From positions 1 through 64,000 of IMG/VR virus record IMGVR_UViG_3300027852_000039: a stretch of 64,000 nucleotides of DNA; one strand, written 5' to 3'. The position numbers and the translations under genes were made by a program. The notes beneath the pieces were generated by a model. The model did no database searches, was not told the DNA's origin, and was given only the letters and a program-made list of their open reading frames with translations. The DNA comes from a virus. Shown here piece by piece: positions 7,598 through 51,655 of the stretch (position 1 is the first letter of the stretch; each line of letters opens with the position of its first letter).

Positions 7598-8633
7598 AGC
7601 GGAGGAGGTCGAGGATCTCTCGAAACAGAAACCGACGAGGAGGATCATTCGTCCGAGCGAGCTTCCTCCGAGAACGGTCACGCTGAAGCGACCGGACATT
7701 ATCGGGAGACTCGTCGAATCCAAGGCGAAGAAACAGGAGCGTTATCCGGTCTACTCTAATTGGGCTTCTATGATGGGAAGCCCCTGTATCCGGGAACTGT
7801 TTCATCATAGAGTGAACTGGAAGTTCCGGGAGATGCCTGATCCCGAGAAACAGTTCCTCTTCGAAGGTGGAGCGTGGATCGAAGACAAGGCGTACAGGGA
7901 TCTTCAGGACGCGGGGTTCCGCATTGAGGCGCAAGGCGCACGCTTTGAGATCAAAGACCGTAAGGAGAACATCACGGGAAAGATCGACATGCGTCTGATA
8001 TGGGAACGTCTCACGATCCCCGTCGAGGTCAAGGGTCTTCAGATGTGGGACGCGGAGAAGCTCAACAGCGTTCACGACTTTTGGGAGTCCTCGAAACCCT
8101 GGATCAAGAAGTATCCGTGTCAATTGCTTTTGTACATGTTCGCGCATGGGTCCGAGTGGGGTTTCTTCTACGTCGTGAATAAGCTCACGATGTTTCCGAA
8201 CGTGATATGGGTCAACCTGTACGATCATCTCGATTACGTGACGGAACGTCTCGAAACGGCGATCCTCGTGAACAAGTGCATCAAGAACCCGAAGCTTCTC
8301 GACAAACAACCGAACAAGGGGTTCAACACGGACCCGGACTACTGTAAGAACTGCGATTACTTCGCGGTCTGCGGTCCTCCGGAAGCGTACGAAGGCGCAG
8401 CGATCGAAAACGATCCGGAGATCCTGAAGCTCCTGGACACGAGGGGAGCGAACGAGAAAGCTCATAGGGCGTTCGAGCAAGCGGACCGGATATTAAAACC
8501 AAAGATCAGGGAAAGGGAATTCCGCTGTGGAGACTGGATCGTGACCGGGAAGAAGGGGTCTCGTCCGAAGATGGTCGCTCACGAGACGGAACGAAACGTG
8601 ACATGGACAGCAAGGATTAAGAGGATTGAGTAA
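7572..8633 (+). CDS. Cas4-like PD-(D/E)XK exonuclease with a 4Fe-4S cluster
   Basis: N-terminal Cys (SPCIR), GKID..EVK, QLLLY, C-terminal CxxCxxxxxC (CKNCDYFAVC); no CRISPR array or other cas genes nearby. Confidence 0.8.
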   Translation: MSDEEVTVKAEEVEDLSKQKPTRRIIRPSELPPRTVTLKRPDIIGRLVESKAKKQERYPVYSNWASMMGSPCIRELFHHRVNWKFREMPDPEKQFLFEGGAWIEDKAYRDLQDAGFRIEAQGARFEIKDRKENITGKIDMRLIWERLTIPVEVKGLQMWDAEKLNSVHDFWESSKPWIKKYPCQLLLYMFAHGSEWGFFYVVNKLTMFPNVIWVNLYDHLDYVTERLETAILVNKCIKNPKLLDKQPNKGFNTDPDYCKNCDYFAVCGPPEAYEGAAIENDPEILKLLDTRGANEKAHRAFEQADRILKPKIREREFRCGDWIVTGKKGSRPKMVAHETERNVTWTARIKRIE

Positions 8634-8659
8634 GTCGGGGAAGAGAACTCTGAAAAAGG

Positions 8660-8690
8660 AAAGAGCGGAGGATCCGTCCCCCGCTCTTTC
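8660..8690 (+). terminator. Hairpin terminator
   Basis: AAAGAGCGG...CCGCTCTTT inverted repeat after the nuclease gene. Confidence 0.5.
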
Positions 8691-8942
8691 TGGTAGCGCG
8701 TTTAAGGACGTCACTACCGCTCCGCATTCCAGGTTCGAGAGAATGCGTACACGATCACGAACGAGATGTCAAGGAAAATCAGGTCGAATCTTTTTCGAGA
8801 ATTCTCTTTACAAGCTTGGCAGATTCCGCTAATCTCTACCGCATCCAACAATCCCACGGTCAAGTCGAAGTTCAGGAAATAATCCAGCCATACGAAACAA
8901 TCAGAACAGGTCCGTTCAAACGGCGCTCGGGGAGACGAGTGA

Positions 8943-10004
8943 ATGGGGGGGCTCCGAAAATGGTTCAAGGTTCCGGTAGAGCTTTTGATGTCAACGCGGT
9001 TTCAACGTCTGTCAGACGAATACGCGGGAAGGCTGTTCAGACTTCTCGGGTTCGTTTGGAGAGACTCTCCCGATCAATTTTCCATACCCTACGACACAGA
9101 GGATCTCTGCAACCTTCTTCGGGGGATCTCCGAGGAAGAGCTTGAGAGAACTCTGTCCAAGCTGGCGAACGGCGATGATCCGATCATTCTGGTCGAGAAC
9201 GATCGTCTCGTCGTCCCATTCCTTCAAGAACAAGCTGAAGACAACGAGAAGGCGGTCGAGCAACGACGGAACGCGGCGCGGTCCCGGTGGGGATCGAGCG
9301 CGTCCGACGATGCGGGAGACATGCGGTCCGCATCCGGGTCGCATACGGGTCGGAATGCGGGTCGCAATGCGGGAGGTGTGCGGTCCGGTATGCGGGGAGG
9401 CATACGGGGATCATGCGGTCCGCAGCAGAATAAAGATGAAAAGATAGAGAGAGAAAGAGAAAGAGAGGTTGAGATGTGTAATAAGGGGGAGATAGGGGGG
9501 AGTGTGAGGGGGGAAAGAGGGGGGGACAACGCTCCCGTCGCTGACGCTTCGGGGTCGTCAGAAAAAAACGCTGACGACACGCTTCCAGGGATCCCGCCTT
9601 CGCGCTCTCGGAAGAAGTTCCCGGATTGTCCTTGCGCGAAGATCATCGAGTCGTATCGGGAGAGACTCGTCCCTCCCCTGGAGGACGCGGTCGATGAGGC
9701 GGTCCTTCGCACTCAGATCCGGAATCGATGGAGGGACGAGAAGGATCGACAGTCGCTTGAATGGTGGGACGCATACTTCGACATCGTCTCCGGGTGTCCG
9801 TATCTCATAGGGAAGGTGAAGGACTGGAGAGCGACGCTCTTGTGGTTGACCGGGAAAAAGAACACGGCGAAGGTTCTCGCGGGTCAGTACGTCCCGAACG
9901 AACTGAAGGGTAAATTCACGACGAAGGGTCTGAAGAACATGAACGTCGCAGCGGACATCATTCGCAAGCTCAGAGAGCAAGAGGAAGGAGAGAAGACAGG
10001 ATGA
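8943..10004 (+). CDS. Phage replication initiator protein
   Basis: N-terminal winged-helix-like region (WFKVPVELL), RRNAARSRW, low-complexity linker, C-terminal WRATLLWL..KVLAGQY; followed by a DUF6475 gene. Confidence 0.7.
   Translation: MGGLRKWFKVPVELLMSTRFQRLSDEYAGRLFRLLGFVWRDSPDQFSIPYDTEDLCNLLRGISEEELERTLSKLANGDDPIILVENDRLVVPFLQEQAEDNEKAVEQRRNAARSRWGSSASDDAGDMRSASGSHTGRNAGRNAGGVRSGMRGGIRGSCGPQQNKDEKIEREREREVEMCNKGEIGGSVRGERGGDNAPVADASGSSEKNADDTLPGIPPSRSRKKFPDCPCAKIIESYRERLVPPLEDAVDEAVLRTQIRNRWRDEKDRQSLEWWDAYFDIVSGCPYLIGKVKDWRATLLWLTGKKNTAKVLAGQYVPNELKGKFTTKGLKNMNVAADIIRKLREQEEGEKTG
9310..9470. repeat. Iteron-like repeats (ATGCGG/ATACGG core, ~11-12 bp period) plus A/G-rich tract; candidate replication origin
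   Basis: Cores at ~9310, 9321, 9343, 9355, 9367, 9390, 9402 and 9413, followed by AAAGATGAAAAGATAGAGAGAGAAAGAG. Confidence 0.6.
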
Positions 10005-10705
10005 AAGAGATTGAGTCGATGACCAGGGAGGAGCGGATCCAGTTCGAGGAGTTCATCCTCATCATGACGGCGATCGCGGAGGAGTACGGGGAAGAGATGT
10101 CTGAACGAAGACACCTTCTCCGATGGCAAGCGTTGAAGCAATACGGGATCATCCGGATCCGGGACGCCACGTCGGAGCATCTCTCGAAGTCGAACTTCTT
10201 CCCGAGGATCCACGACCTTGTCGATCTGATCGAGGGGACCGGAAGAGACGAACTCACCGAAGGCGGGGCGCTCGCGTGGGACGAGTTCATCCGAGCGATG
10301 GAAGGAGTCGGCCGATACAACAGCGTCCGGTTCTTGAACAGAAGGATCAACGCGATCGTTCAAGAGTGGGGAGGATGGGAGCGCGTCTGTACCCTGGAGT
10401 ACGACGAACTCAAATTCAAGCGGAAGGAATTCATCGAACTGTACAAGGCGTTCACGCGTCGAGATTCGGAGACGCTTCCGGAGAGATGCGCGGGTTTGAT
10501 CGAGGGACACAATCAGGGAAGAGAGGATCGCTTGATTGAGACTCCTCCGGACAAGATTGTCGGAAGAGTCGGCGCGATGATCGAGATCCAGGAAGGGGAG
10601 AGTCCGGTCTTGATTAGAGTTGATCTCGCGAAAGAGGGAAGCGAGAAGACGGTTCAGGTTCCGGTACGAGAACTCTTGAGTAAGATCGGGAGGACGAAGA
10701 AATGA
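10001..10705 (+). CDS. DUF6475-like replication protein (helicase loader-like position)
   Basis: FFPRIHDL, AW..F..AM..VG.YNSV.F.N..I..IVQEWGGW..VC, FKRKEFI..Y. Confidence 0.7.
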   Translation: MKEIESMTREERIQFEEFILIMTAIAEEYGEEMSERRHLLRWQALKQYGIIRIRDATSEHLSKSNFFPRIHDLVDLIEGTGRDELTEGGALAWDEFIRAMEGVGRYNSVRFLNRRINAIVQEWGGWERVCTLEYDELKFKRKEFIELYKAFTRRDSETLPERCAGLIEGHNQGREDRLIETPPDKIVGRVGAMIEIQEGESPVLIRVDLAKEGSEKTVQVPVRELLSKIGRTKK

Positions 10706-11040
10706 AAGAGGGAGAGCTTCGTAAATTGGAATTGACGACCGAGAGAATCGATCTCATGAACTCGTTTGTTGAACTTTTTGAGCTTGCCGACTGGTCCGCA
10801 ACGCAGATCTTCAAGCAACTTTGTCAGAAGGCGATCGAGGGAAAGCACGGATGGAGAGACAGCGGCTATCATAGAGAGCTTGAAGGAGATATCAGCTACA
10901 ACGTGAAGGATATCCTCGATCATTTCGAAAAGGTGAAGATGTTGCAGTTCGACAGCAAGACCACGATCGTCGATCTCGTGAATTTGTTGATCTTTCGTCT
11001 GTGGTGGCTTTACGAAACGAACGGAGCGAATGAGGAATGA
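10702..11040 (+). CDS. Hypothetical protein
   Basis: ATGA-coupled ORF. Confidence 0.6.
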   Translation: MKEGELRKLELTTERIDLMNSFVELFELADWSATQIFKQLCQKAIEGKHGWRDSGYHRELEGDISYNVKDILDHFEKVKMLQFDSKTTIVDLVNLLIFRLWWLYETNGANEE

Positions 11041-11426
11041 ACGGACAACACGATTCCGATTGGGATGTTGATACAGACGGATTTCGGACAATCTCAGAAG
11101 TGAAGATCACGCTCGTCGACGGGACACGTCTGACCATGAGTCCGAAGGCATTCCGGATGCAAATGTCGATCGTTGATTCCAAGAGGAAAGCGAACGCGCT
11201 CCGGATCCCGCTGTACTTCAAGAGCGAGATGGATCGTGTCCACAAGAAACCGGACGACGTCGCATTCAGAATTACGCTTGCGACCGAATACATCAAGCAA
11301 GAAAAGATCGGGGAAGACCCCGTTCACATAGTTTCGAATTCGCTGAAGAAGAAGATCCCGAAAGACCGGACTCGAAGGATCGTTCGTCCCAATCAACCCG
11401 AAGAAGAAGAGGAGAAGGAAGAATGA
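11037..11426 (+). CDS. Hypothetical protein with C-terminal RRIVRP motif
   Basis: ATGA-coupled ORF. Confidence 0.65.
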   Translation: MNGQHDSDWDVDTDGFRTISEVKITLVDGTRLTMSPKAFRMQMSIVDSKRKANALRIPLYFKSEMDRVHKKPDDVAFRITLATEYIKQEKIGEDPVHIVSNSLKKKIPKDRTRRIVRPNQPEEEEEKEE

Positions 11427-11899
11427 AACCAGGATTAAAATCGTACGAGTCCGCTATCGTTCTTGCTCTCGTCTGTTGCGTTCTTGCCACCGTGGTCGTG
11501 GCGAACCGATGTGAGGAGAAGGGGGAAATTCAGGGGGACTTTCCGACAGAGATGTCGGGAGACTCAGAGTTCATTTATCAGGACGATCCGAAATATGATT
11601 ACGTCCCTCCCGGAGATCTCCCGGACACGTCGGACATTGCTCCGATCAGGTTCGCTGTGGAAGCAACGACCGCCAAGATCGCGGCGATGGCATCGGACGA
11701 TCTTGCAACCATACATTTCTATTTCGAAGGCGAAGAGGTCGGGATCATGTCGTGGAAGGACAGCGACGGCGACGGCGAACTCGAACTTACGTGGGAAGGG
11801 ATCTCTGTTGAGAAGAGCGGACAAGCTCTCATCGAATGGTTGAAACAGAGCGGACGTGTCTGTACGTGTCCGCAGAAAGGAGCGTCTATGGTCGACTGA
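11423..11899 (+). CDS. Membrane-anchored/secreted acidic protein
   Basis: Hydrophobic N-terminal helix AIVLALVCCVLATVVVA. Confidence 0.6.
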   Translation: MKPGLKSYESAIVLALVCCVLATVVVANRCEEKGEIQGDFPTEMSGDSEFIYQDDPKYDYVPPGDLPDTSDIAPIRFAVEATTAKIAAMASDDLATIHFYFEGEEVGIMSWKDSDGDGELELTWEGISVEKSGQALIEWLKQSGRVCTCPQKGASMVD

Positions 11900-11987
11900 C
11901 TCAGTGACGCAGCGACGACAGGGAATCAAGAAGGTAGGGGAGGTTGAATCTTTAGACGGGTGGGTTTGGTGGGACAAAGGAGAAACC

Positions 11988-14208: not shown

Positions 14209-14706
14209 ATGGACGGATCTGAACTAAACGATGTTTGCTTCTTCTGTGAAGTGGAGAAGAAGTCCCGAATCGATGGTCGGAAGAAGATCATTCACAAGGG
14301 GATCGACACGGAGAGACTGAAGTTTCCGAGCGGAGATCTCGAAAGAGCTTTCGCGAGGCTATGGGAAAAACAGAACAAGCGTCGTCCAGGCTTGAACTAC
14401 GGAATGGGGACACTTCAAGATCTCATGGTTCGACGAAGCGAGTCCGCTCCGTACGGTCATTCGGTCCCGTATTGGATAACGCAGAGGGAAGCGACGATCG
14501 TCGCGACTATCATTCAGTGGCTCGGAACGAATTGTGGGTTCGCCTTTCTGTGTCAAGCGCTTGGAGATTGCGATATTCACGTCGAGAGCACGGAAGCTTA
14601 TAACGAGAGACTCAAAAAGACCAACAGGAAGTTCCGAGAAGCAGAGGAGCATAAACGAACGCGGACGCGACGAGTCGTCCGTCCAGGAGGAGCGAGCGAT
14701 GAGTAA
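14209..14706 (+). CDS. Hypothetical protein with C-terminal RRVVRP motif
   Basis: ERAFA..W, TQREATIVATIIQWLGTNCG (conserved-looking phage family). Confidence 0.65.
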   Translation: MDGSELNDVCFFCEVEKKSRIDGRKKIIHKGIDTERLKFPSGDLERAFARLWEKQNKRRPGLNYGMGTLQDLMVRRSESAPYGHSVPYWITQREATIVATIIQWLGTNCGFAFLCQALGDCDIHVESTEAYNERLKKTNRKFREAEEHKRTRTRRVVRPGGASDE

Positions 14707-16411: not shown

Positions 16412-16423
16412 GAGGGAGATCGA

Positions 16424-16885
16424 ATGCCCGATCCCGGATCCATTCCTCCGTTCGAGATCTACGTTGACGAGATGGCGATGTTCACGAGGAACGTTGTCCG
16501 GATCTACGTGAAGGTCAGAGCGAACTATTCCCTCGGGATGATCTCAAACCCGGACGTCATTGAAGCGAACAAGGAACACCTTCTCCGACCGGACGGGAAG
16601 GGAGAGTTTGAAGTCGTCCCCTACGATCAGACGATGGTCAGAACGATCGACGAGAACGATTACTTCCTGGACATCCCTCGTCCGTTATTCGAGCATCTTC
16701 TCGAAGCGATGCTGAAGTATGCGAAGAGGAACGGAATCGAACCCGATTCTCTTGCGGACCTGAAAGCGACACTGAGGGCGAAGGAAGAACATCTCGAAGA
16801 CTTCCGGAATCTCGTTCAACAGAAGTTCAACATCACGCTTCCTCAACGTCGTGTCGTGAGGGGAGGTTCTGAGAATGGAAAGTGA
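16424..16885 (+). CDS. Hypothetical protein with C-terminal RRVVRG
   Basis: GGAGG RBS; EHLEDFR coiled-coil. Confidence 0.65.
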   Translation: MPDPGSIPPFEIYVDEMAMFTRNVVRIYVKVRANYSLGMISNPDVIEANKEHLLRPDGKGEFEVVPYDQTMVRTIDENDYFLDIPRPLFEHLLEAMLKYAKRNGIEPDSLADLKATLRAKEEHLEDFRNLVQQKFNITLPQRRVVRGGSENGK

Positions 16886-17285
16886 TCGAGAATACATCGA
16901 CATCGAGGTCGTCATGGACTGGAGCGATCCGGGTCCGGAGGGGATGTCTGTTCGTCCTGGAGCGCTGAAGGTCGACGAGTACATGAAGAACTCCGTCGTT
17001 CTTTCGAGCTTCGATGTGAGGACTCCTCCGGTCGGAAAGACGACGGAGATCGAGTTCGGTGAGGACGGGAAGTGTCGGATCAAGATGAAGATCGAACGCA
17101 CGTACGCGGAAGCGATCCTCGAAGGCGCGATGTTTGCGAACCCTGGATTCATCGCGAAGAAGTGGACCGAGAAGGACGACGGGACGAAGGAGTACGAAGA
17201 GGGCGATCTTCTCTCCATTGGACTCGTCGCGAAACCTCCCGCTGAGAGTCAAGACAATGGCGAAGATCCCGGATCTAAAGGCTAA
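16875..17285 (+). CDS. Hypothetical protein (weak resemblance to an HK97 prohead-protease fold)
   Basis: YMKNSVVL.SFD...PPVGK, ..LLSIGLVAKP. Confidence 0.45.
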   Translation: MESDREYIDIEVVMDWSDPGPEGMSVRPGALKVDEYMKNSVVLSSFDVRTPPVGKTTEIEFGEDGKCRIKMKIERTYAEAILEGAMFANPGFIAKKWTEKDDGTKEYEEGDLLSIGLVAKPPAESQDNGEDPGSKG

Positions 17286-17640
17286 GGTTGACGTGTCGTT
17301 GTCCGAACAGTTGAAGATTTTTGTTGAGATAATGAGGGCGTTCGGGATCTCGACAGTGGATGCGGCGAAGAACTTCGAAGAGTTCGGGAAAGCGATGAAG
17401 AAGATTCAGCCGAAGAACCCGGACGCGGTTGAGATGGATCTCCCCCCTTACGATGACGGTCTTTCGGATTTCTGCAAGAACACGGTCGCGATAGGAGAAC
17501 AGGGAAAACCGCAACAGGTCACGAGCTGGAAGGCCACGATCGGACCGACCGGAAGATTTCCCGCGACCTTCCCGATGGAAGCATCCAAAGGAAGCGACGG
17601 ATTGTACAACCCACAAACGGAAAAGAAGGAGGAGTCGAAG

Positions 17641-18882
17641 ATGAATGTTGAGTTTTCACGCGACGTACTCGAAGAAAAACTCTCATACGCGAGGGTCTTC
17701 ACAGAAGCAAAGGGATCGATGCAACGACTCGACGCGGTCCTCTGTGAAGCGAAGAAGCTGGAGGGAGGAAGAACCGTCCTTCAGATCACAACGACAAACC
17801 TTGAGACGTCCTATGTCGGTCTAGTCGACTGCGATGTGAAGGAGGAGGGGACGGTCTGTCTCAACGCTGCGAAGCTTCTCGATATTGTGAAGACGTTGAA
17901 CCGAGAAGCGGCGGCGTCTCTCACCGTGACGAAGAAGGATCCGGAGACGGTCCTCCTGAAGAGCGGTCGATCGAAGTTCAAGCTGAAACTGTTTCCTCCG
18001 GAGGAGTTCCCGAAGCTCTCGAAGGTCAAGTACACGGAGGGGATCCCGATCAACCCGTTCACGCTGTCGAGAGCAATCCGGAAAGCGAAGAAGGGAACGT
18101 CCAAACAGTTACAGACGGGTCGGGTCGGACTGGAGTCTCTTCTCTTCCGGTTCGAGGGAAAAGACTTGAAGAAGCTCTTTCTCGTGAATGTCGGGACGGA
18201 CGGTCATCGTTTGGCATACGTGAGGAACAAGATCCCTCTCGACGAATCTCAGATCGCTTCACAAGAGCTTCCTCCCTGGATCAAGGGAGCGGAGGACGGA
18301 AAAGCGCGAGAGTACGTTCTTCCGATCTCAGGACTCCTTCAGCTTGAGAGGGTCGTCACGGACTATCTGTCGTCACTGAAGGAGGGAGACGAGGAGATTC
18401 CGGTCGAGGTTGCTCCGGATGAAGAAACCCGAGCGATTGCGTTCGCGATCAACGACTCGATTCTTCATCTTCAATGTATCAACATGATGTATCCGGATTT
18501 CGAGGCGATCAGGAAGCACGAGTTCGGTGTGACGCTCCACGTGGATCTCCCGCAAATATCGGCGGCGCTGAAGCGGGTTGCGGTCCTCACAGATTCCAAG
18601 CATCGCGAGGTCACGCTGAAGGCGAGATCGACCGAGCTTGATATGAAACACGTCAGCGCGGAGATCGGAGAAGCTCAGGACACGGTCGCTTGTGAACTCA
18701 TGGGGGAACCGTGGGAACTGAACTTCAACGTTACGTATCTCCGAGAAGGCGTCCAGGGGATCGCGGAGGAGGAGGACGTCTTGATCGAGATCGCGGAGGG
18801 AGGAAAACCCGTCCGGATCCGGGGATCGAAAAATGCGTACGCGGACGAGTTCGAGTATATCTTGATGCCGCTCAGGATATAG
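17641..18882 (+). CDS. dnaN: DNA polymerase III beta sliding clamp
   Basis: TNLE, KLLDIVK.L, SGRSKFKL...PEEFP, GTDGHRLA, YPDF, FNVTYL, YILMPLR; strong AAGGAGG RBS; in-frame upstream extension from 17257. Confidence 0.92.
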   Translation: MNVEFSRDVLEEKLSYARVFTEAKGSMQRLDAVLCEAKKLEGGRTVLQITTTNLETSYVGLVDCDVKEEGTVCLNAAKLLDIVKTLNREAAASLTVTKKDPETVLLKSGRSKFKLKLFPPEEFPKLSKVKYTEGIPINPFTLSRAIRKAKKGTSKQLQTGRVGLESLLFRFEGKDLKKLFLVNVGTDGHRLAYVRNKIPLDESQIASQELPPWIKGAEDGKAREYVLPISGLLQLERVVTDYLSSLKEGDEEIPVEVAPDEETRAIAFAINDSILHLQCINMMYPDFEAIRKHEFGVTLHVDLPQISAALKRVAVLTDSKHREVTLKARSTELDMKHVSAEIGEAQDTVACELMGEPWELNFNVTYLREGVQGIAEEEDVLIEIAEGGKPVRIRGSKNAYADEFEYILMPLRI

Positions 18883-28517: not shown

Positions 28518-30068
28518 ATGAGAACACAAGACTTGAACTTCACGCATTATCACAACGCGGGGTTTCCGTACATTTGGATCGAGACGTTCGAAGCGGACCG
28601 ATTGATCCGAGACATGACCGCGATGATCCCCGAGGAGGAGGAGGTCTTTCAGTGGGACATGGTCGACGGGATCTACGAAGCGCGGTCCGGGAAGCACATC
28701 GAGATCGAGAGGAGCGACGATGATGATGACAAAGACGAGGGACCGAAGGCGCAAGACATGATCGATCTTCTCGTGTCAAGGGACGGACCCGCGATCATGT
28801 TCGCGGTGAACTTTCATTTCGTCCTGGACGAGAGGGTCAACCCGGAGGAGAGAGCGGAGATCATTCAGAAGCTCGTCAACGCGCGAGACGAGCTTCAGAG
28901 AAAGGGGAACTGCCTCGTCGTTGTCTGTCCGGTCCTGGAGATTCCGCTCGAACTGTCCAAGATATTTCAGACGATCGAGTTCGATCTCCCCACGAAAGAA
29001 AAGCTCCGAGAGGTCTTCGAGCAGCAAGCCAAGAACGCGAAGCTCCCGGAATCGAGCAATGACCACATGGAGAGCGTTCTCGAATCGGCGGTTGGTCTGA
29101 CAGCACACGAAGCGGAAAACGCTGCGGCGCTCTCTATTGCGGCGATCGACGCTCTCGACCCGAAGATCATCTCTCATCTTCGCGCGGATATGATTCGTCA
29201 GAGCGCGACTCTTGAGGTTGGAAGGTTCGAGAAGACGCTCGATGACCTGAAGGGGATGGACGCCGTCAAGGGATACATTCTCGATTCCCTGAAGAGCGAC
29301 AAGTACAAGGGGATCCTCCTCATCGGGATGGCGGGAAGCGGGAAAACGGAACTCGCGAAGACGATCGGAGCGCACGTCGAGCGGGACACGATCATCGCGG
29401 ATATCAACAAGATCATGTCGGAAGGAAAGGCGCTTGTCGGTCAAGCGGAGACGAAAGCGTATCAGTCGACGAAGATCATCGACTCGCAAGGAAGTCCGAT
29501 CGTCATGTTCGACGAGATCGAGAAGGGACATCCGGGAGCGCGCGCGCACGAAGGAGACGGGGGATCGAGAAGCGGCGTCGGCGCGATTCTTCTGAAGTGG
29601 TTGTCGGACCGTCCTCGCGGAAAGGCGTACGTGATTGCGACGTGTAACGCAATCGACAAGCTCCCTCCGGCATGGAAGCGCGCGGGACGATGGGACGCGA
29701 TCTTCTTCGTGGACTTCCCGGACAAGGAGACGCGGGACGAGATCCTCGATCATTACTGCAAGATTCACGACGTCGATAACTTCGACGCTCCCGAGATGGA
29801 AGGATGGACCGGAGCGGAGATCGAGCAAATGGTCCTCAACGCGTCGATGTTGAATCGGACCCTGAAGGACGCGAGCATGTTCGTGACTCCGATCGTGGAA
29901 GTGGATCCCGAGGGAGTGAAGGAGCTTGAAGACTGGGCATTCCCGAAGGGGAGAGACAAGAAGGGGCGATGTGTCCTTGCGACCACGAGGAAGAATCCGA
30001 AGGACAAGAAGATCGATCCGTCCGGATCGACCAGGAGAATCAAGCGGGACGGCGAGAGCGTCAACTAG
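28518..30068 (+). CDS. Ycf46-like AAA+ ATPase
   Basis: N-terminal AGFPYIWIETFE, inactive first domain, Walker A GMAGSGKT, Walker B MFDEIEK, ATCN....LPP...R.GRWD..FFVD.P, GWTGAEIEQ. Confidence 0.88.
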   Translation: MRTQDLNFTHYHNAGFPYIWIETFEADRLIRDMTAMIPEEEEVFQWDMVDGIYEARSGKHIEIERSDDDDDKDEGPKAQDMIDLLVSRDGPAIMFAVNFHFVLDERVNPEERAEIIQKLVNARDELQRKGNCLVVVCPVLEIPLELSKIFQTIEFDLPTKEKLREVFEQQAKNAKLPESSNDHMESVLESAVGLTAHEAENAAALSIAAIDALDPKIISHLRADMIRQSATLEVGRFEKTLDDLKGMDAVKGYILDSLKSDKYKGILLIGMAGSGKTELAKTIGAHVERDTIIADINKIMSEGKALVGQAETKAYQSTKIIDSQGSPIVMFDEIEKGHPGARAHEGDGGSRSGVGAILLKWLSDRPRGKAYVIATCNAIDKLPPAWKRAGRWDAIFFVDFPDKETRDEILDHYCKIHDVDNFDAPEMEGWTGAEIEQMVLNASMLNRTLKDASMFVTPIVEVDPEGVKELEDWAFPKGRDKKGRCVLATTRKNPKDKKIDPSGSTRRIKRDGESVN

Positions 30069-31000: not shown

Positions 31001-31963
31001 ATGAAGACGAAGAAGAAAGAAAAGTCTGAAGAGAAGAAGATCCCCGAGGTCTTCGAGTGCGGTCGACTCCTGAAGCTCCGCTTCTCCCAATGGCAAGGGA
31101 GGAAGAAGGTCGATCAGGATAAAGTCGAGTGCAAACCAGGAGATGACGGGGCGGTCGCGAAAGAAGGGACGTGGGACGCGAGGAAGTCCCTTGTCGATCG
31201 AGACAAGGCGATCCTTCCAATCAACAGGGTAAAGGGACAAACCGTCGCAGAAGTCGAGAGAAGGATGGTTCCCGGATGGGATGACCGCGCAAGCTTCTTC
31301 ATCGCGAAGAACGACATCCTGTCGACGGAAGCGTTACTGAAGGAAATGAGCGTCCTGTTTTATGAGAAGGTCGAGACGCTCCATAAGGAGATGGAGAATC
31401 TCAAAGCGGAAGCGCGAGTGAACCTCGGTCCACTCTACAATCCGGAAGACTATCCGGACGACGTCCGGAATCACTTCAAGATGTCTTGGAACTGGTTGAA
31501 GGTCACTCCCGAGAACGGTGACGACGTCCTCCCTCCCGAGATGCAAGCGAACGAGATCGACAAGTTCAAGGACATGATGGGAGAGTTCCGAGAGACGGCG
31601 ATGTTCAATCTTCGTCTCGCGTTCAAGGAGGTCGTCGGGGAGATCGTCGAGGGTCTGACGTCCGGATCGAAGGACGGGAAGCGGAAGGTCATCCGTGGGG
31701 ACTTCGTCGAGTCCAGGGTCGAGAAGATTCAACACCTGTCCTCCCTGAACGTCTTCCAGGACGGCGATCTTGAGAAGGAGATCGAGAACCTTCAGCGGAT
31801 CCTGAACGGCGTCGACATCGAGGATCTGAAGGAGGACGAGAAGTTCAAGAAGCGGGTCCGGACCGAGGTCGGGAAGATCTCGAAAGCGGTCCGTCCCTGG
31901 ATGGACGACGCTCCGATTCGGAGGATCATCCGTCCGTCCAGGTTGAAGCACCTGGATAAGTAG
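31001..31963 (+). CDS. DUF3150-like protein with C-terminal RRIIRP
   Basis: W.G.KK, L...YNP.DYP..VR..F...W, LNVF.D..L; usual neighbour of this AAA module. Confidence 0.6.
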   Translation: MKTKKKEKSEEKKIPEVFECGRLLKLRFSQWQGRKKVDQDKVECKPGDDGAVAKEGTWDARKSLVDRDKAILPINRVKGQTVAEVERRMVPGWDDRASFFIAKNDILSTEALLKEMSVLFYEKVETLHKEMENLKAEARVNLGPLYNPEDYPDDVRNHFKMSWNWLKVTPENGDDVLPPEMQANEIDKFKDMMGEFRETAMFNLRLAFKEVVGEIVEGLTSGSKDGKRKVIRGDFVESRVEKIQHLSSLNVFQDGDLEKEIENLQRILNGVDIEDLKEDEKFKKRVRTEVGKISKAVRPWMDDAPIRRIIRPSRLKHLDK

Positions 31964-31977
31964 GATCCCCGAGAATG

Positions 31978-32010
31978 GGGAAGGGGGACAAGGCGCTCCC
32001 CTTCCCTTTC
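31978..32010 (+). terminator. Intrinsic terminator
   Basis: GGGAAGGGG...CCCCTTCCC followed by TTT. Confidence 0.55.
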
Positions 32011-32064
32011 GGGAGCGGGGGACATGCTCAGAATCGATTCTCGTAAGCGAGGGAGGACATTCAG

Positions 32065-39734: not shown

Positions 39735-40072
39735 GACACCAACAGTACAATCTCCGGATAGAGGTCGAGGAGAAGCGGACCGTCATTCGGATGTCCAAGC
39801 TCGGGATGTTGGACATCCTGTCCGCGTTGAGCAATCTGAACCGGATGTCGACAGAGATCTCGGAGAAGGAGTGGAGGGAGAGGGACGAACCGTTCGTCGT
39901 GCGGTTTCTGAGTAAACCGCTCGGAAACATCGAATGGATACTCGATCCGAAATTCGAGCGCGAGATCCTGGAGCAACAGCGCGCGGAAATCGAGGAAAGA
40001 GTCCGCAAGACATGGGGAGCGGCAAATGAGACGAAGGTATTGTCCATGCGGAGCAAGGATCGCGGAGGATGA
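39731..40072 (+). CDS. Hypothetical protein
   Basis: ATGA-coupled. Confidence 0.55.
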   Translation: MRHQQYNLRIEVEEKRTVIRMSKLGMLDILSALSNLNRMSTEISEKEWRERDEPFVVRFLSKPLGNIEWILDPKFEREILEQQRAEIEERVRKTWGAANETKVLSMRSKDRGG

Positions 40073-40532
40073 CAACCCGTGTCCTTTTTGTGGGAAGGAG
40101 CGGGAGACGAAGCCGTCGATGTTCACGACGCCGACGTTCTTTCAGGAGAAGGATCCCGTCAAACTTCTCACAGTGATCGAGGACTACATTGACAAAGGAC
40201 CGTTCGACGATTCACACATCACGAAGTCGTTTCCGATGATCCCCTTCGTGGAGATCATCGGAAACGACATGGGGTTAGGGTGCGAGATAACGAAAGACCT
40301 GATCTCGAAGACGACGAGTAACTCGCCCATCATGTACTACAAAATGCTTCAGGCGCAAAAGGACAAGGAGATCGAGAAGCTCAAGGAAGAGATGCGCGGG
40401 GAGATCATCAAGGAGCTTGGAATCCCGAAGTCGATCCTGAACATGCGGACTGGACCGGCGAAGAAGGAGAAGCGAAGACCCACGGAGCGAACCCGGAGGA
40501 TCATTCGTCCGGGGATGAAGAAGGAGGAATAA
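40026..40532 (+). CDS. Zinc-ribbon protein with C-terminal RRIIRP
   Basis: CPCG ... CPFC. Confidence 0.65.
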   Translation: MRRRYCPCGARIAEDDNPCPFCGKERETKPSMFTTPTFFQEKDPVKLLTVIEDYIDKGPFDDSHITKSFPMIPFVEIIGNDMGLGCEITKDLISKTTSNSPIMYYKMLQAQKDKEIEKLKEEMRGEIIKELGIPKSILNMRTGPAKKEKRRPTERTRRIIRPGMKKEE

Positions 40533-41032
40533 TGCGATATCCCAAACCGAAGACGTACTTCATCGAGGTCGACCATTATCTTTCGGACGAGGAACACGAC
40601 AGGATGCTTCACGAGTGGGGGATGCGAAACCGGAGAATGGGATTCAAGGATGAGCTTATCCTCCTGGACGGCGGGATGCGTCTCGCGAATCCGGGATCCG
40701 TCTGGAAAGCGTTCGTCGGTGGGTTCCTCGTGGCGGCGATGGCGGCGCTCGTGTTCGCGGTCGTCATGGCGGCGGTCGAGGCAGAGGGAGCAATGCTTCG
40801 AAATCCCTTTGAGAGCAACGAGGATGCCGAAAACGAGGGGAATCTCCCTGGACAGATACAAGTGATCCAGGATTGGAAGGGGGACGATCTGACCTGTATT
40901 CCGTGGGAAGTGGCGTGTGTCGAGGACGGAGGGGAGAAGCTTCTCTGTATAATCCCATGCGGCGACGTCCGCGCGGATCCGGGGGATCTCCTCGTCTGTC
41001 CGGACGGACGTCAATACATAGCGGACCCATAA
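40532..41032 (+). CDS. Membrane protein
   Basis: Central TM helix, Cys-containing C-terminal domain. Confidence 0.6.
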   Translation: MRYPKPKTYFIEVDHYLSDEEHDRMLHEWGMRNRRMGFKDELILLDGGMRLANPGSVWKAFVGGFLVAAMAALVFAVVMAAVEAEGAMLRNPFESNEDAENEGNLPGQIQVIQDWKGDDLTCIPWEVACVEDGGEKLLCIIPCGDVRADPGDLLVCPDGRQYIADP

Positions 41033-41805: not shown

Positions 41806-41819
41806 CGGGGGATAGAAGG

Positions 41820-44843: not shown

Positions 44844-45323
44844 ATGGCGACGACGAAACGCGAGCGACAAGAGGAGTTCCTTTTCCTGTATCCTCAATGC
44901 GGGTATTCGATCACTCGGACGATCCGGAAGATGAGTCCTCCTCTTCATCGGAATCAGGTCTATCGATGGAAGTCGGAGAAGGGCTTTAAGGAAAAACTCG
45001 CGGCGCTCGACATGGAGCAAGCGGACATCGCAAAGGATCAGATGTGGAGATGGTTCATCGTTCCCACGAAGGTCAAAGAGGACAAGGACGGAAACCCGGA
45101 GATAGATCCGGAGACGGGAGAGGAGAAGCGGATCCCCGCGAAACCGAATCTCACAGCGTTGATCTTCTGGATGAATATGACGGGAGACTTCGTCGGGTTC
45201 GACTTGGAGAAGGTACTCAAACAGGAAGAGCTTCAGCGGAAGAACAAGGAGCGGACGAAGAAGAAGGGTCGGAGGATCGTTCGTCCATCTGACGTGAAAG
45301 CGGTGAAGAAGGAGAAGTCATGA
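44844..45323 (+). CDS. Probable terminase small subunit (HTH) with C-terminal RRIVRP
   Basis: FL..Y...G.SI, R..VYRW....F, NLTALIFW; upstream of TerL. Confidence 0.55.
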   Translation: MATTKRERQEEFLFLYPQCGYSITRTIRKMSPPLHRNQVYRWKSEKGFKEKLAALDMEQADIAKDQMWRWFIVPTKVKEDKDGNPEIDPETGEEKRIPAKPNLTALIFWMNMTGDFVGFDLEKVLKQEELQRKNKERTKKKGRRIVRPSDVKAVKKEKS

Positions 45324-45622: not shown

Positions 45623-45624
45623 TC

Positions 45625-46806: not shown

Positions 46807-46808
46807 AC

Positions 46809-47716: not shown

Positions 47717-47718
47717 TC

Positions 47719-49494
47719 TTGACGGACTCAATCCTCGAAGCACTTGACACCCTCCGAAGAATCAAGTCTCCCAAAACAGCGAAACAGGTCCGCGAGATCG
47801 TTCCTATATCGGAGTGGCTTGAATCTCCGTACTACGTCGGGGAAGACGGTCTGAAGCTCTACGACGTATGGAAGGACGAGCTTGCGAAGGTCTTCGACGA
47901 GGACAAGCCGAAATCCGAGTGGATCGTAACAGGATCCCTCGGGAGCGGGAAGTCGACGGCGGGGGAGTTCGCGGAAGTCCGGAAGGTCTACGAGCTTTCA
48001 TGCTTTGAACCGATCCCGTATCTGTTCAATTTCATGAAATCGTCGACGATCATGTTCATCTATTTCTCGATCACTCTGGAGCAAGCTCAGAGAACGGGGT
48101 TCGGGGAGATCCGGAGAAGGGTTGACTCGATCCCGTACTTCACAAGGCGCTTCGGTAGAAACCGAGACAAAGACAAAGCGCTCGAATTCAAGAACCTCTC
48201 GATCATCTACGGATCGGACGTCGGTCATCAAGTAGGAACCCATCTGATTAGCGCTCTACTGGACGAAGCGAACTTCATGGATCGGAAGTTCGATGCGATG
48301 AAAAAAAACTACTCAAAAGCTCAGGCGCTTTACAATAGCGTCCTGAACCGGAGACTGAACCGCTTTGTGATTGACGGCGTCGATCATGGTCTGTCCGTTC
48401 TTGTGTCTTCAGCGGCAACGACGTCGAGCTTCACGGAAGAGCGCATCGAGGCGGCGAGGGACAACTCGCGATCGCACGTCTCTGAAGTGACGGCGTTCAA
48501 GGTCAAGCGGAAAGAATACGACCTGAACGAGTTCCTCGTGTTCGTGGGGACGGAGCTTGTCGACCCGTGTCTGATCGACAACTATGGAGACTTGACCCGG
48601 ACGTGCGAAGCGCTCGGGACCGAATGTCCGGAGCATGGATCCCTGAGACGGAGAGTCCGAAGGATCGAAGAGAAATACAGAGATCTCTTTCAATGGGTTC
48701 CCTCCGAACAGTTCCGGGACAGCTTCGAGAAGAACCTCCTCGATTCGATTCAAGACGTCCTCGGGATCTCGACGCGACCGCTCGGGAAACTCTTTCAGAG
48801 TCATTCGAAATACGCGAAGGTAATCGAGCTTGCGGACTATCTCGAAGCGAGACATCCGTTCACGAGCGAGGTCATCACGATCTCGACCGAGAACAACAAG
48901 ATGATCCAGGACTTCATAATCGAGGAACGGATGGGTCCGAAGAACAAGGCGCGATGTATCCACGTCGATCAATCCAAGTCGAACGACTGGACGGGGATCG
49001 CAAGCGCATACGTGGACGGATACATCGACATTCAGGTCGGAGAGAAGAGTCAGAGGGTTGCGCTCGTCCGGGTTGAATTCGTGATCGTGATCGAACCTCC
49101 AAAGAAACCCGCAGAGATCCCGATCGAGCGAACACGTCTCTTCGTCAATTGGTTGAAAGACAATAAGTACAGAGTCTCTCGTGTGACCTATGACGCATGG
49201 GGATCCGTGGAGTCGATTCAGATTCTTCAGCGTCAAGGGATCGCGGCGTCTCACTATTCCGTCGACAAGGACGACGAACCATACAAGCAACTCGTCACGA
49301 TGATAAACCAGGGTCCGAGGATCCTCCTGTACGATCATCCGATTTTCAGGCGCGAGCTTTTCAACCTGGATCATGATCGGATGAAAGGGAAGGTCGACCA
49401 TCCGGAGAAGGGATCCAAGGACGCAGCGGACGCGGTTTGTGGCGCGGTGAACAACGCTCTCCTCGCAATTCTCCCCGAACCGAGGATTCGGTAA
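47719..49494 (+). CDS. terL: Terminase large subunit
   Basis: Walker A GSLGSGKST, Walker B LLDEA, nuclease IHVDQS..D.TG, TYD.W.S, KVDHP..GSKD.ADA. Confidence 0.9.
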   Translation: MTDSILEALDTLRRIKSPKTAKQVREIVPISEWLESPYYVGEDGLKLYDVWKDELAKVFDEDKPKSEWIVTGSLGSGKSTAGEFAEVRKVYELSCFEPIPYLFNFMKSSTIMFIYFSITLEQAQRTGFGEIRRRVDSIPYFTRRFGRNRDKDKALEFKNLSIIYGSDVGHQVGTHLISALLDEANFMDRKFDAMKKNYSKAQALYNSVLNRRLNRFVIDGVDHGLSVLVSSAATTSSFTEERIEAARDNSRSHVSEVTAFKVKRKEYDLNEFLVFVGTELVDPCLIDNYGDLTRTCEALGTECPEHGSLRRRVRRIEEKYRDLFQWVPSEQFRDSFEKNLLDSIQDVLGISTRPLGKLFQSHSKYAKVIELADYLEARHPFTSEVITISTENNKMIQDFIIEERMGPKNKARCIHVDQSKSNDWTGIASAYVDGYIDIQVGEKSQRVALVRVEFVIVIEPPKKPAEIPIERTRLFVNWLKDNKYRVSRVTYDAWGSVESIQILQRQGIAASHYSVDKDDEPYKQLVTMINQGPRILLYDHPIFRRELFNLDHDRMKGKVDHPEKGSKDAADAVCGAVNNALLAILPEPRIR

Positions 49495-49576
49495 AGAATC
49501 CAAGGACTTGCCGAAGACATCTCTGAAACTCCCTGATCGCGCGCGCACTATATCTTGAATAGGAGGCCCGTTTCCT

Positions 49577-51655
49577 ATGCAAGATATAGTGTCCGGTTCG
49601 AAGGCGCTCGCACCCTTCAATCCTGGAATCCCCCTGTCAAATTACCGAATCATCCCTCGATCCCCTGTCGTCGCGGATCGTCTTCGGTCAGTCGCGAAAG
49701 CGCATAAGCTGACGGATCCAGGATGGGCGCAAGTGTTCGGGTCCGGGAAGTGGTCTATCTCGGAAGAGAACTTTTACAAACAACACCTTTGGGTCTACGC
49801 GTGCATAAATCGGATCTCGTCCAACGTCGGCGGCGTCCCCTACGAAGTGTACAAGGGGGACACGGAAGTTCCGGTCGATGACGAGAAGGACGATTGCTTC
49901 CGACTCTTCCGAGATGTCAACCCGCACCTTTCCCGATACCAGCTATTCGAAGGAACTTCGATCTTCCTCTATGGGTGGGGCGAAGCGTTTTGGGTTCTTG
50001 AGAAACTCGGGATGCCGACCGTCCAAGAGATTTGGATGTTCCGTCCGGATCACTTCAAGCATGTCGTCAAAGACGGGAAGCTCATCGGATGGGTATACGA
50101 CCGGGGAGTGAAACAGGTTCCGCTCGAACTCGACGAAGTGATTCATTTCCGACTGTTCAATCCGTACGACGACATTCGCGGATTCAATCCGATGCAAGTC
50201 GCAAAGCTCACGGTCGAGACGGATTACTTCGCGCAAAAGTTCAACTGGAATTTCTTCAAACAGGGTGCGACCCCTGGACTCTCTCTCACGACAGAGCAAG
50301 CACTCGACGACGATCAGTACGATCGCGTCATGGCGCAATGGGAACAGAAGTATTCCGGACTGTCGAAGTCTCATTCGATCGCGATCCTCGATGGAGGACT
50401 CAAGTTCGACAAGATGCCGATCACGCAGAGGGACATGGACTTCGGAGGTCTTCGGAAGATGGCGAGGGAGGAGGTCTGTGCAATCCTCGGAGTTCCTCCC
50501 GCTGAAGTCGGGATCCTCGAATACTCTCGCGCGTTCGCGAACACGAAGTCGCAAGACAAAGGGTTTTGGCAGAAGACCCTGATCCCTCGGATGCATTACT
50601 TCGAAGACATCCTGAACACGAATTTCTTTCCCGTCCATTTCCCGGAACATCAAGGGTACTTCGATCTGTCGGTTGTCGAAGCGCTTCAAGCGGATCTCCA
50701 TGAGAAGGCGAAGACGGCGAAGACCTTTCATACGATGGGATATCCGATCAACGTTATCAACGAGAGCATGGGTCTCGGGTTCCCGGAAATCAACGGGGGA
50801 GAGTTCGGATACCTTCCGCAAAACTACATCCCCGTTACGGCGGTGAAGGACGCGAAGAAGACGGTCGACAAGGTGCGCGAGGAGATCGGAGAGAAGATCA
50901 CGCGACGGATCGTTCGACCGAAAAGGAAGTACACGAAGGTCGGTTCTCTCAACACGCGGAAGATCGAAGCGATGAGAGTGCGGTACGCGGAAGAACTTCG
51001 CCTTGAGATCGAGAGCGCTAAGGAGCGGATCCGCGATCATCTGAAGGGTGTCTTCGGATACGGAAAGAAGATGCGGACGAAAGGACCGAAACAGTACGCT
51101 CCCGAAGTCATCGAGGGAATCTTTTCCGATTGGGTCAAGGGATGGAAGGAGAAGGGTGCGGAGTACCTCAAGGAAGCGTTCGAGTTTGGTCTGTCTTCTG
51201 CAGAGGAACTCATGGGAGACTTGCTCACGAGCGAGACGTTCCGAGAGACGGTTCTCATTCAATTGACGTCGAAGAACGACGCGTTCGTCCAAAAGAGGAT
51301 CGATTCAATCCTCGCACAACTCGCGAGCGAGCTTTCAGATATAGGATGGGAAGGCGAAGGGGCGGCGTCGGTCGCGGTTGATCTGTTGAACCGACACACC
51401 TTCCGCGCTGAAACCTTCGCGAATTTTGTTCTCTCTGTAGCGCACCATTCCTTCGTAGCGGAGGGGGCAGAGAGAAAGTATCAAGGCATCTGGCACACAA
51501 CCGGAGACGGGAACGAGTGTCCCACTTGCGAGGGGATGCCTTCCGGAAATCCGTGGAAGCTCGGAGAGATGACGACGCTTCCGGGAGAGGACGTCATCTG
51601 TAACGGTCGGTGTCGATGCTATGTGGAGATCGTGAATCCAGAAGAAGGGGGTTAG
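49577..51655 (+). CDS. HK97-family portal protein fused to a Mu gpF-like head morphogenesis domain
   Basis: VYACI..I, NP, GEAFW, EVIHFR..NP.D..RG..P, FF.QGA.P, GVPP..VG; C-terminal W....D...C..C...CRC. Confidence 0.9.
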   Translation: MQDIVSGSKALAPFNPGIPLSNYRIIPRSPVVADRLRSVAKAHKLTDPGWAQVFGSGKWSISEENFYKQHLWVYACINRISSNVGGVPYEVYKGDTEVPVDDEKDDCFRLFRDVNPHLSRYQLFEGTSIFLYGWGEAFWVLEKLGMPTVQEIWMFRPDHFKHVVKDGKLIGWVYDRGVKQVPLELDEVIHFRLFNPYDDIRGFNPMQVAKLTVETDYFAQKFNWNFFKQGATPGLSLTTEQALDDDQYDRVMAQWEQKYSGLSKSHSIAILDGGLKFDKMPITQRDMDFGGLRKMAREEVCAILGVPPAEVGILEYSRAFANTKSQDKGFWQKTLIPRMHYFEDILNTNFFPVHFPEHQGYFDLSVVEALQADLHEKAKTAKTFHTMGYPINVINESMGLGFPEINGGEFGYLPQNYIPVTAVKDAKKTVDKVREEIGEKITRRIVRPKRKYTKVGSLNTRKIEAMRVRYAEELRLEIESAKERIRDHLKGVFGYGKKMRTKGPKQYAPEVIEGIFSDWVKGWKEKGAEYLKEAFEFGLSSAEELMGDLLTSETFRETVLIQLTSKNDAFVQKRIDSILAQLASELSDIGWEGEGAASVAVDLLNRHTFRAETFANFVLSVAHHSFVAEGAERKYQGIWHTTGDGNECPTCEGMPSGNPWKLGEMTTLPGEDVICNGRCRCYVEIVNPEEGG

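Follow-up and report, generated by a model that had tools for sequence, protein, structure and literature searches.

Seven proteins encoded along one stretch of an uncultured marine phage genome carry the same six-residue peptide, RR[IV][IV]RP. Is this chance, a signal in the nucleic acid, or a peptide with a function of its own? The copies were noted in a preliminary description of a 64,000-nt stretch (hereafter, the window) of the 75,760-bp genome, which placed them on seven unrelated proteins and proposed that they recruit replication, packaging and early proteins to a common hub. We searched the whole 75.8-kb genome in all six frames. RR[IV][IV]RP occurs seven times, always on the plus strand and in the frame of the gene, at the positions first reported; the other five frames are empty, and the 11.7 kb of the genome outside the window contain no copy. 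Two near copies, RRVVRG (at 16847) and RRIKRD (at 30033), were also recovered as described, both in frame and in C-terminal tails. The nine copies are listed here together with two genes that may encode a partner of the motif.

7638-7655, plus strand: RRIIRP after Thr, in the N-terminal tail of a Cas4-domain exonuclease (probable gene 7572-8633).
11373-11390, plus strand: RRIVRP after Thr, ending 11 residues short of the C-terminus in a 129-aa protein with no recognisable family (11037-11426).
14668-14685, plus strand: RRVVRP after Thr, ending 6 residues short of the C-terminus in a 165-aa protein with no recognisable family (14209-14706).
16847-16864, plus strand: near copy RRVVRG, ending 6 residues short of the C-terminus in a 153-aa protein (16424-16885).
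17641-18882, plus strand: beta sliding clamp DnaN (PF00712 and PF02768), a candidate reader.
28518-30068, plus strand: AAA+ ATPase (PF00004, phrog_8638), a candidate tag reader or another client of the reader.
30033-30050, plus strand: near copy RRIKRD after Thr, ending 5 residues short of the C-terminus in the AAA+ ATPase.
31919-31936, plus strand: RRIIRP, ending 8 residues short of the C-terminus in a DUF3150-like protein (31001-31963).
40494-40511, plus strand: RRIIRP after Thr, ending 6 residues short of the C-terminus in a 168-aa zinc-ribbon protein (40026-40532).
45270-45287, plus strand: RRIVRP, ending 11 residues short of the C-terminus in a TerS-like protein (44844-45323).
50903-50920, plus strand: RRIVRP after Thr, in the variable linker that joins the portal domain to a MuF-like C-terminal domain (gene 49577-51655).

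As the preliminary description had remarked, the copies lie mostly near the ends of tails and often after Thr: just 5-11 residues separate the motif from the stop codon in seven of the nine, and Thr directly precedes it in six. The other two copies are in the portal linker and in the Cas4-like N-terminal tail, where the motif follows the probable N-terminus (ATG at 7572, preceded by GGAGG) by ~22 residues. An S78 prohead protease gene adjoins the portal-MuF gene, and the 153-aa carrier is encoded immediately 5′ of the clamp region. The flanks of the motif are rich in Lys and Arg, and several tails are net acidic just after it (for example, NQPEEEEEKEE). Structure prediction gave residues 141-159 of the TerS-like tail a pLDDT of <50 and no secondary structure; the AlphaFold model of the Cas4-like protein was poor over its full length (mean pLDDT 47), so it is silent on disorder.

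The nine carriers comprise a Cas4-type exonuclease, an AAA+ ATPase, a DUF3150-like protein, a TerS-like protein, a portal-MuF fusion and four small proteins. Among the names first given to the carriers and to a proposed AAA/DUF1257/DUF2997 machine, those of the Cas4-domain exonuclease (phrog_1990, E = 1.4e-19), the AAA+ ATPase and the portal (PF04860) were upheld. The MuF assignment is indirect, coming solely through homologs that bear PF04233; the DUF3150-like assignment is an Atlas lead only, and the TerS-like assignment derives from weak fold matches and gene position. DUF1257 scored under the Pfam cut-off, no DUF2997 was detected in the phage, and we found no literature on such a trio in phages. 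The carriers belong to different families or to none, and calling them unrelated is fair; the wording ‘replication, packaging and early proteins’ applies in part, four carriers having no recognisable family.

Short linear motifs are stretches of three to ten residues that recur on unrelated proteins far above chance. Against the seven strict copies observed, 0.008 would be expected from the composition of the proteome, 0.006 from that of the tails only, and 0.013 from shuffling inside 30-residue windows, where the maximum in 1,500 shuffles was two. An earlier rough estimate of ~0.01 copies agrees with all three null models. In the frame of the motif, codon usage is of coding type in every one of the nine carrier ORFs (per-codon log-likelihood ratio 0.21-0.35), as compared with −0.12 to −0.31 for antisense ORFs overlapping the carriers. 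We conclude that the peptide recurs on real proteins of different or no families at 7 strict copies versus 0.006-0.013 expected.

It had been pointed out that a DNA operator would be betrayed by copies of the string off frame or on the minus strand. No out-of-frame, minus-strand or intergenic DNA copy is present in the genome. Searches of both strands with zero or one mismatch returned no sites beyond the in-frame ones, and matches with two mismatches were no more numerous than expected by chance; the idea of a peptide motif thus came through this test unrefuted. A scan of IMG/VR with the coding DNA pattern of the motif gave two matches, in short ORFs of non-coding appearance, which we judged to be chance. 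An RNA hairpin was rejected, since the sites fold differently, with z-scores from −3.8 to +1.0 and differing pairings. The synonymous codon variation described earlier among the copies is real. The frequent CGT-CC, which had been attributed to genome-wide avoidance of GCC and GGCC, is indeed accounted for in this way: genome-wide, CGT makes up 56% and CGA 27% of the Arg codons before Pro, compared with 10% and 22% overall. A mild bias is left over, in that the second Arg is AGG in five of the seven strict copies (versus 26%, p ~0.015) and position 4 has a T-ending codon in five of seven (versus 26%, p ~0.015). This residual bias leaves room for some constraint on the nucleotides or for a common origin of the copies.

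Conservation of the motif in orthologs was compared for four carriers (Cas4-like, DUF3150-like, TerS-like and portal), setting the identity of the five-residue core against that of the ±15-residue flanks. In orthologs of the first three, at 53-78% identity, the core RRI[IV]R is kept amid diverging flanks with insertions and deletions. Core and flank identities were 0.93 and 0.49 for the Cas4-like protein (4 lineages, with TRRIVRP, TRRIIRP and KRRIIRA in the orthologs), 1.00 and 0.32 for the TerS-like protein (RRIVRP and RRIVRN, with indels on either side), and 0.90 and 0.70 for the DUF3150-like protein (TRRIVRP and TRRIIRP). In the Cas4-like and TerS-like proteins the motif is thus an island of conservation (0.9-1.0 versus 0.3-0.5), and indels flank it in TerS and in the portal. 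Portal values were lower, at 0.60 and 0.25. The closer portal ortholog, L019, has TRRIVRP intact: three of its codons have changed synonymously and none non-synonymously, and indels adjoin it. In the portal of the GY847 relative the motif is lost and SRKVGTP stands in its place, which shows that at least one carrier can do without it. Selection had been placed at the protein level in the preliminary description, and the retained core and the purely synonymous changes in L019 bear this out. As judged from these alignments, purifying selection is shown to keep the motif in at least three related phage lineages. A Cas4 homolog at 30% identity lacks the whole segment and ~300 kb of sequence from distant relatives contain no strict copy, and we therefore consider the tag to be clade-specific. 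No close relatives were found in IMG/VR, GTDB contigs or INPHARED, and the sole match to the relatives in JGI metagenomes was a 2.5-kb contig.

These comparisons weigh on three readings in which the peptide itself has no partner. If the motif were a nucleotide-level signal (an operator, promoter, RNA processing site or RNA structure), the peptide would be a by-product; the recurrent core GGATC(A/G)TTCGTCC, the mild surplus codon bias and the position of most copies shortly 5′ of the next gene speak for such a signal. However, all nine copies are in one frame with none elsewhere, sequence context accounts for most of the codon bias, the ortholog changes three of seven codons synonymously, no common fold unites the sites, and two conserved copies are far from gene starts. 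We regard this reading as largely refuted and give it very little probability. The same proximity to downstream genes could reflect a pause, at the level of the nascent peptide or of its codons, that holds the ribosome 5′ of the next ribosome-binding site for translational coupling. Six of the seven C-terminal copies end 11-67 nt 5′ of the next start codon, and at 14668 and 16847 the Shine-Dalgarno sequence of the next gene follows or overlaps the motif (at 14668, GGAGGAG and the ATG are directly 3′); moreover, arrest peptides containing Arg and Pro are known. For these six copies a translation-linked role thus keeps a small probability. The spacing from motif to start varies, though, and no start lies downstream of the copies in the Cas4 N-terminal tail, the portal linker and the DUF3150-like protein (a terminator-like hairpin comes after the last), which are nevertheless conserved in orthologs. 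We also know of no strong arrest motif made of one Pro after Arg, and we rate a pause just as improbable. Lastly, the copies could be functionless, either remnants of a single ancestral tail module that recombination has spread or an accident of composition. The codon bias common to the copies fits a shared origin, whereas chance yields ~0.01 copies and the motif persists at 53-78% identity while its flanks diverge with indels; this reading is unlikely, and indeed scarcely credible to us.

The interpretation of (T)RR[IV][IV]R(P) as a protein-level short linear motif, located in probably flexible N- or C-terminal tails and in one inter-domain linker, is by comparison well supported by both tests, the absence of off-frame DNA copies and the retention of the motif as tails diverge. 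We think it more likely than not that the motif is a docking tag read by one conserved partner. The beta-branched hydrophobic pair, with three arginines around it and often a closing Pro, would bind as an extended strand, docking in an acidic and hydrophobic groove of the shared partner. The partner would thereby gather, remodel or time the turnover of proteins of DNA replication, recombination and packaging; recruitment to a common hub, as first suggested, is our inference, and the hubs named at the outset, an AAA/DUF1257/DUF2997 machine, DnaN, a protease or a viral-factory scaffold, are at most candidates. The motif does not change between lineages whose identity is just 53-78%, and its reader would therefore be expected to evolve slowly, as either a conserved machine of the phage or a conserved protein of the host would.

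Two further readings give the tails another role at the protein level. The motif might be a nucleic-acid-binding tail, an Arg-rich module for DNA or RNA grooves with a role like that of an AT-hook, in which case the hub would be the phage DNA. The recognisable carriers act on DNA (the nuclease, the TerS-like protein, the portal and the zinc-ribbon protein), the flanks are rich in Lys and Arg, and TRRIVRP is found in the ribosomal protein eS7, though at chance level. However, the strict beta-branched pair and its invariance across lineages suit a protein groove more than a phosphate backbone, the Gly-Arg-Pro core of the AT-hook is missing, and the net acidity of several tails just past the motif counts against such binding; we consider this reading unlikely. 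Alternatively, the S78 prohead protease or a host protease could recognise or cut the motif, freeing the MuF-like domain and trimming the tails. Dibasic sites are frequent protease targets, and one copy is located exactly in the portal-MuF linker, beside the S78 gene. However, neither the major capsid protein nor the protease-scaffold protein, the usual substrates, has a copy, early replication proteins would miss a protease confined to the prohead, cutting off 5-11 terminal residues has no obvious purpose, and the GY847 portal is without the site. We therefore hold cleavage to be very unlikely.

If the motif is a docking tag, its reader can be named only as a guess. The phage AAA+ ATPase has perhaps one chance in several, the adaptor site of a host ClpX-type N-domain a little less, and the phage beta clamp less again, with the remainder of the probability going to another protein. 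A complex prediction of the Cas4 N-terminal tail with AAA residues 1-470, DnaN and E. coli ClpX residues 1-60 scored 0.01 (mark 0.32), in one job without controls and with a four-chain design outside the calibration of the tool; it counts neither for nor against binding. The most attractive version is a clade-specific address-tag system, in which a conserved reader, perhaps the Ycf46-like AAA+ protein with its small neighbours, gathers, remodels or retires tagged replication, recombination and packaging proteins on schedule; the tail of this ATPase itself holds the near copy RRIKRD. We put this forward as a speculative and rather unlikely scheme, which, if true, would amount to a viral counterpart of degron/adaptor or clamp-toolbelt systems with a previously undescribed peptide code. 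A few hubs, such as sliding clamps, SSB, ClpX and p97, organise many clients by shared docking peptides, and to our knowledge only a handful of such peptides are known in phages, for example, the clamp-binding tails of T4 and the acidic tails of T7. The preliminary description knew of no phage motif of this form, and we likewise found no description of the motif strings in a relevant context in the literature. A basic, clade-specific tag that ties together a nuclease, an AAA+ ATPase, a small-terminase-like protein, a portal and family-less proteins would point to an unrecognised organising interaction in this uncultured marine phage group. It would also offer a common experimental handle on proteins without assigned function, since naming the hub could link nine proteins to one process.

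Several known peptides resemble the tag in part. The Tat signal is an N-terminal [ST]RRxFLK followed by a hydrophobic h-region; it was rejected, eight of the nine copies being C-terminal or internal and none being followed by a hydrophobic stretch. The AT-hook, with its Arg-Gly-Arg-Pro core, was rejected as well, the residue before Arg-Pro being Ile or Val in all strict copies and never Gly. A profile of the nine tails gave chance-level matches only against PDB sequences: the heptapeptide TRRIVRP in eukaryotic eS7 had an E-value of 0.96 (about 1), and IRRIIRPSR in 6n0s, a 181-residue chain annotated as AAA_5, had an E-value of 2.4, with no wider similarity between that chain and the DUF3150-like protein.

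Bacterial beta-clamp-binding motifs (consensus QL[SD]LF or QLxLxL) are, like the tag, linear and near the ends of proteins of DNA transactions, and the phage has its own beta clamp. None of the nine copies has the Gln or Leu/Phe anchors, which led us to reject a canonical motif, and the basic chemistry of the tag is at odds with the canonical pocket. No phage-encoded polymerase was detected in the families searched, so the phage clamp should still accept canonical host motifs. The N-domain of p97/Cdc48, an AAA+ protein of the classical clade, reads Arg-rich VBM and VIM motifs, which are helical and eukaryotic, on unrelated cofactors. The phage similarly has a classical AAA protein (PF00004) whose own tail holds a near copy, with no sequence relationship between VBM/VIM and the tag.

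SspB binds the N-domain of ClpX through its XB peptide, RGGRPALRVVK, and phage lambda O and MuA are recognised by that domain too (PMC3983244). The end of XB, LRVVK, has the same basic-hydrophobic-hydrophobic-basic pattern as the tag (RRVVR, RRIVR or RRIIR), so that R-[IV]-[IV]-[RK] is present; in contrast to XB, the position of Leu161 is Arg in the tag, and 5-11 residues follow where XB is at the extreme C-terminus. The XB Leu is reported as a key hydrophobic contact, and UmuD and the FtsZ linker are further ligands of the ClpX N-terminal zinc-binding domain. The phage itself encodes no ClpX zinc-binding domain that we could find, and we treat the apparent resemblance as a lead only.

The T4 proteins gp43, gp33 and gp55 have similar C-termini that bind the gp45 clamp via divergent linkers (PMC2988020). 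There, as may be the case here, several functionally unlike phage proteins share one short peptide on divergent linkers of variable length, the T4 hub being gp45 (PMC2988020). In T4 the peptide combines hydrophobic and acidic character and forms the very C-terminus, whereas the tag is basic, is followed by 5-11 residues, and is also found in an N-terminal tail and a linker. Unlike the T4 set, its nine carriers include packaging proteins.

Each of the seven strict copies of RR[IV][IV]RP listed in the preliminary description was found at exactly the coordinates claimed, always on the + strand and sharing the frame of the ORF around it, and two near copies are in frame too:

7638, + strand: strict copy, N-terminal tail of the Cas4-like protein
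11373, + strand: strict copy, small protein of no recognisable family
14668, + strand: strict copy, small protein of no recognisable family
16847, + strand: near copy RRVVRG, small protein of no recognisable family
30033, + strand: near copy RRIKRD, tail of the AAA+ ATPase
31919, + strand: strict copy, tail of the DUF3150-like protein
40494, + strand: strict copy, small protein of no recognisable family
45270, + strand: strict copy, tail of the TerS-like protein
50903, + strand: strict copy, linker of the portal-MuF fusion

Neither the five remaining frames nor the final 11.7 kb of the genome contains the strict motif. Chance would yield 0.008 copies given the composition of the proteome, 0.006 given that of the terminal 40-residue segments alone, and 0.013 when residues are shuffled within 30-residue windows with the motif's own residues kept in place; the earlier rough estimate was ~0.01, and seven are observed. 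In the motif frame, codon usage is of the coding type for all nine carrier ORFs but not for the antisense ORFs that overlap them.

Seven copies are followed by only 5–11 residues, and Thr directly precedes the motif in 6 of 9. In the Cas4-like protein the motif is ~22 residues in from the probable start codon (ATG 7572, preceded by GGAGG); in the portal protein it occupies the linker that joins the portal domain (Pfam match, residues 73–388) to a C-terminal domain, which in homologs carries the MuF annotation. An in-frame ATG at 50972 is found ~50 nt past the portal-linker motif, where the MuF-like domain begins. In an AlphaFold model of the TerS-like protein the N-terminal fold is confident and the motif-bearing tail (residues 141–159) is unstructured, with pLDDT below 50. 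At 14686–14700, 16855–16877, 40515–40534 and 45300–45322 the next gene's Shine-Dalgarno sequence and start codon double as coding sequence for the last residues of a carrier; the ends after the motif are charged and non-conserved because the GGAGG of that gene is read as G/E/K-rich codons.

Protein searches yielded orthologs for four of the carriers; at least three other lineages are represented. The Cas4-like N-terminal tail reads TRRIIRP, TRRIVRP, TRRIIRP and KRRIIRA (the last from GY847, a 53%-identical phage from an NCBI MAG), with residues on either side varying freely; a 30%-identical homolog lacks the entire segment. The TerS-like tail reads RRIVRP, RRIVRP and RRIVRN, flanked by indels before and after, and all three DUF3150-like tails carry (I/T)RRI[IV]RP. 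In the portal linker, TRRIVRP is retained at 78% identity, and the GY847 phage has a degenerate version, SRKVGTP. With that exception the motif is kept while the flanking tails diverge: identity to the window's protein is 0.9–1.0 over the five-residue core where it is 0.3–0.5 over the ±15-residue flanks. This pattern is the textbook hallmark of a short linear motif maintained by purifying selection, and such conservation leaves a functionless relic as the least probable reading of all. The strict motif is absent from ~300 kb of loci of more distant relatives (portal 22–37% identical), indicating that the tag belongs to this clade. Two of the ortholog sequences, P0017 and P0026, have a longest contig of equal length, 20,575 bp, and are thus probably on one contig; two others, P0003 and P0022, share a MAG name and a 73,557-bp longest contig, and their accession numbers, 62 apart, fit a conserved gene order.

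On first inspection the DNA of the motif also appears conserved (CGG AGG ATC rTT CGT CCG). CGT makes up 10% of Arg codons overall; before Pro, however, Arg is encoded genome-wide by CGT in 56% of cases and by CGA in 27%, because GCC (226 observed versus 1,278 expected on the coding strand of the whole genome) and GGCC (47 versus 395) are strongly avoided. These counts uphold the earlier explanation of the frequent CGT-CC. A milder residual bias is seen at the second Arg (AGG in 5/7 versus 26%) and at motif position 4 (T-ending codons in 5/7 versus 26%; p about 0.015 for each). The degenerate DNA pattern, and the 13-nt core at 0–1 mismatch, match in-frame sites only; at two mismatches the core matches at the shuffled expectation, and the pattern gains only six matches, versus 6.5 expected in total. 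The DNA string is therefore not found off-frame or on the minus strand, which disfavours the DNA operator raised earlier as the alternative. No common RNA fold was found across the 98-nt motif contexts (z-scores −3.8 to +1.0, with differing pairings). In the portal ortholog L019 (76–78% identical), the one ortholog compared at the DNA level, 3 of the 7 TRRIVRP codons are changed synonymously and none non-synonymously; the adjoining codons carry substitutions and two indels. Moreover, the Cas4 N-tail and portal-linker copies, both conserved, are far from any gene start. The data on frame, orthologs and position thus stand against a DNA or RNA signal, which we regard as highly improbable, and equally against a translational pause, to which we give just as little credence. 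We conclude that selection of the motif at the protein level, in flexible tails of unrelated proteins, is well supported.

The most likely role inferred for this peptide is that of a tag docking on one partner; the hub originally proposed is plausible. The carriers would be recruited through their tails, with the motif adding as an extended strand to an acidic and hydrophobic groove of the partner; this mode is suggested by the three Arg, the neighbouring pair of beta-branched hydrophobic residues and the Pro that usually closes the motif. A free C-terminus is not part of the signal, since the residues after the motif are non-conserved and partly dictated by the next gene's ribosome-binding site, which overlaps them. 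The motif is unchanged across lineages of 53–78% identity rather than changing in step, which suggests a slowly evolving partner. One candidate is the phage AAA+ ATPase, whose own tail bears the near copy TRRIKRD and whose gene lies two genes upstream of a carrier's. Another is a host ClpX-type N-domain (the phage itself encodes none): lambda O and MuA, both from phages, are recognised by this domain, and its ligand XB, the SspB docking peptide, ends in LRVVK (PMC3983244). The phage beta clamp may be a third, by analogy with the tail peptides that bind the T4 gp45 clamp (PMC2988020), and nucleic acid itself is a fourth.

A nucleic-acid-binding tail would agree with the DNA-related carriers and basic flanks, less so with the strict pair of hydrophobic residues, and we consider it unlikely. 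A protease site would suit the copy in the portal-MuF linker; however, capsid and scaffold proteins have no copies and the early carriers do not suit, making this quite improbable. The closest described systems to a docking tag are the T4 clamp-binding C-termini, the XB/ClpX N-domain interaction and bacterial clamp-binding motifs, in which, as would hold for the phage tag, a tail peptide common to several proteins is read by a hub. The phage motif is nevertheless unlike canonical clamp-binding peptides in sequence and fits the XB class only in part. The clamp-binding, AT-hook and Tat-signal classes were ruled out, their defining residues being absent. The motif strings do not occur in any relevant paper of the literature searched, and match PDB sequences at chance level only.

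The DnaN clamp domains begin at residue 170 of the longest ORF at 17134–18882. ATG 17641 of DnaN is preceded by a strong AAGGAGGAG, and a 128-aa ORF of no known family, starting in frame further upstream at ATG 17257, continues into DnaN without a stop, so that a plain clamp and an extended version of it could both be made. The adjoining 136-aa ORF (16875–17285) has no Pfam match and aligns weakly (29% over 92 residues, pairwise E 2e-5) to the N-terminal portion of the S78 prohead protease encoded at 51660–53183.

The window covers the first 64 kb of a 75,760-bp virus record. A stretch of ~126 nt near the start of the record (window 15–140) recurs at its end (genome 75635–75760); the first 14 nt are a small inverted artefact. 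Given this repeat, the contig is probably a complete genome, circularly closed or terminally redundant, despite a completeness estimate of 58%. A single sequencing run, from a marine metagenome, was found to contain it and is its probable source. Practically all genes are on the + strand, and the nearest cultured phages are very distant (large terminase 28% identical to Vibrio phage SIO-2-like phages). The recognisable genes include:

Cas4-domain exonuclease, lambda-O-like replication initiator, beta sliding clamp
two radical-SAM enzymes, several sugar enzymes
large terminase, portal fused to a MuF-like domain, S78 prohead protease
DUF5131 protein, ParB-like protein, AAA+ ATPase

None of the scanned proteins was recognised as a DNA polymerase. 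GGC, the complement of GCC, occurs 677 times versus 1,691 expected, a strand-specific asymmetry suggesting more than restriction-site avoidance. CTAG (21 versus 280) and TGCA (123 versus 280) are likewise avoided on the coding strand, and GATC (1,021 versus 280) and TCGA (952 versus 280) are ~3.5-fold over-represented. Directly 3′ of the DUF3150-like stop, a GC-rich hairpin followed by a T run (31964–32020) looks like an intrinsic terminator, among the few obvious ones in the early region.
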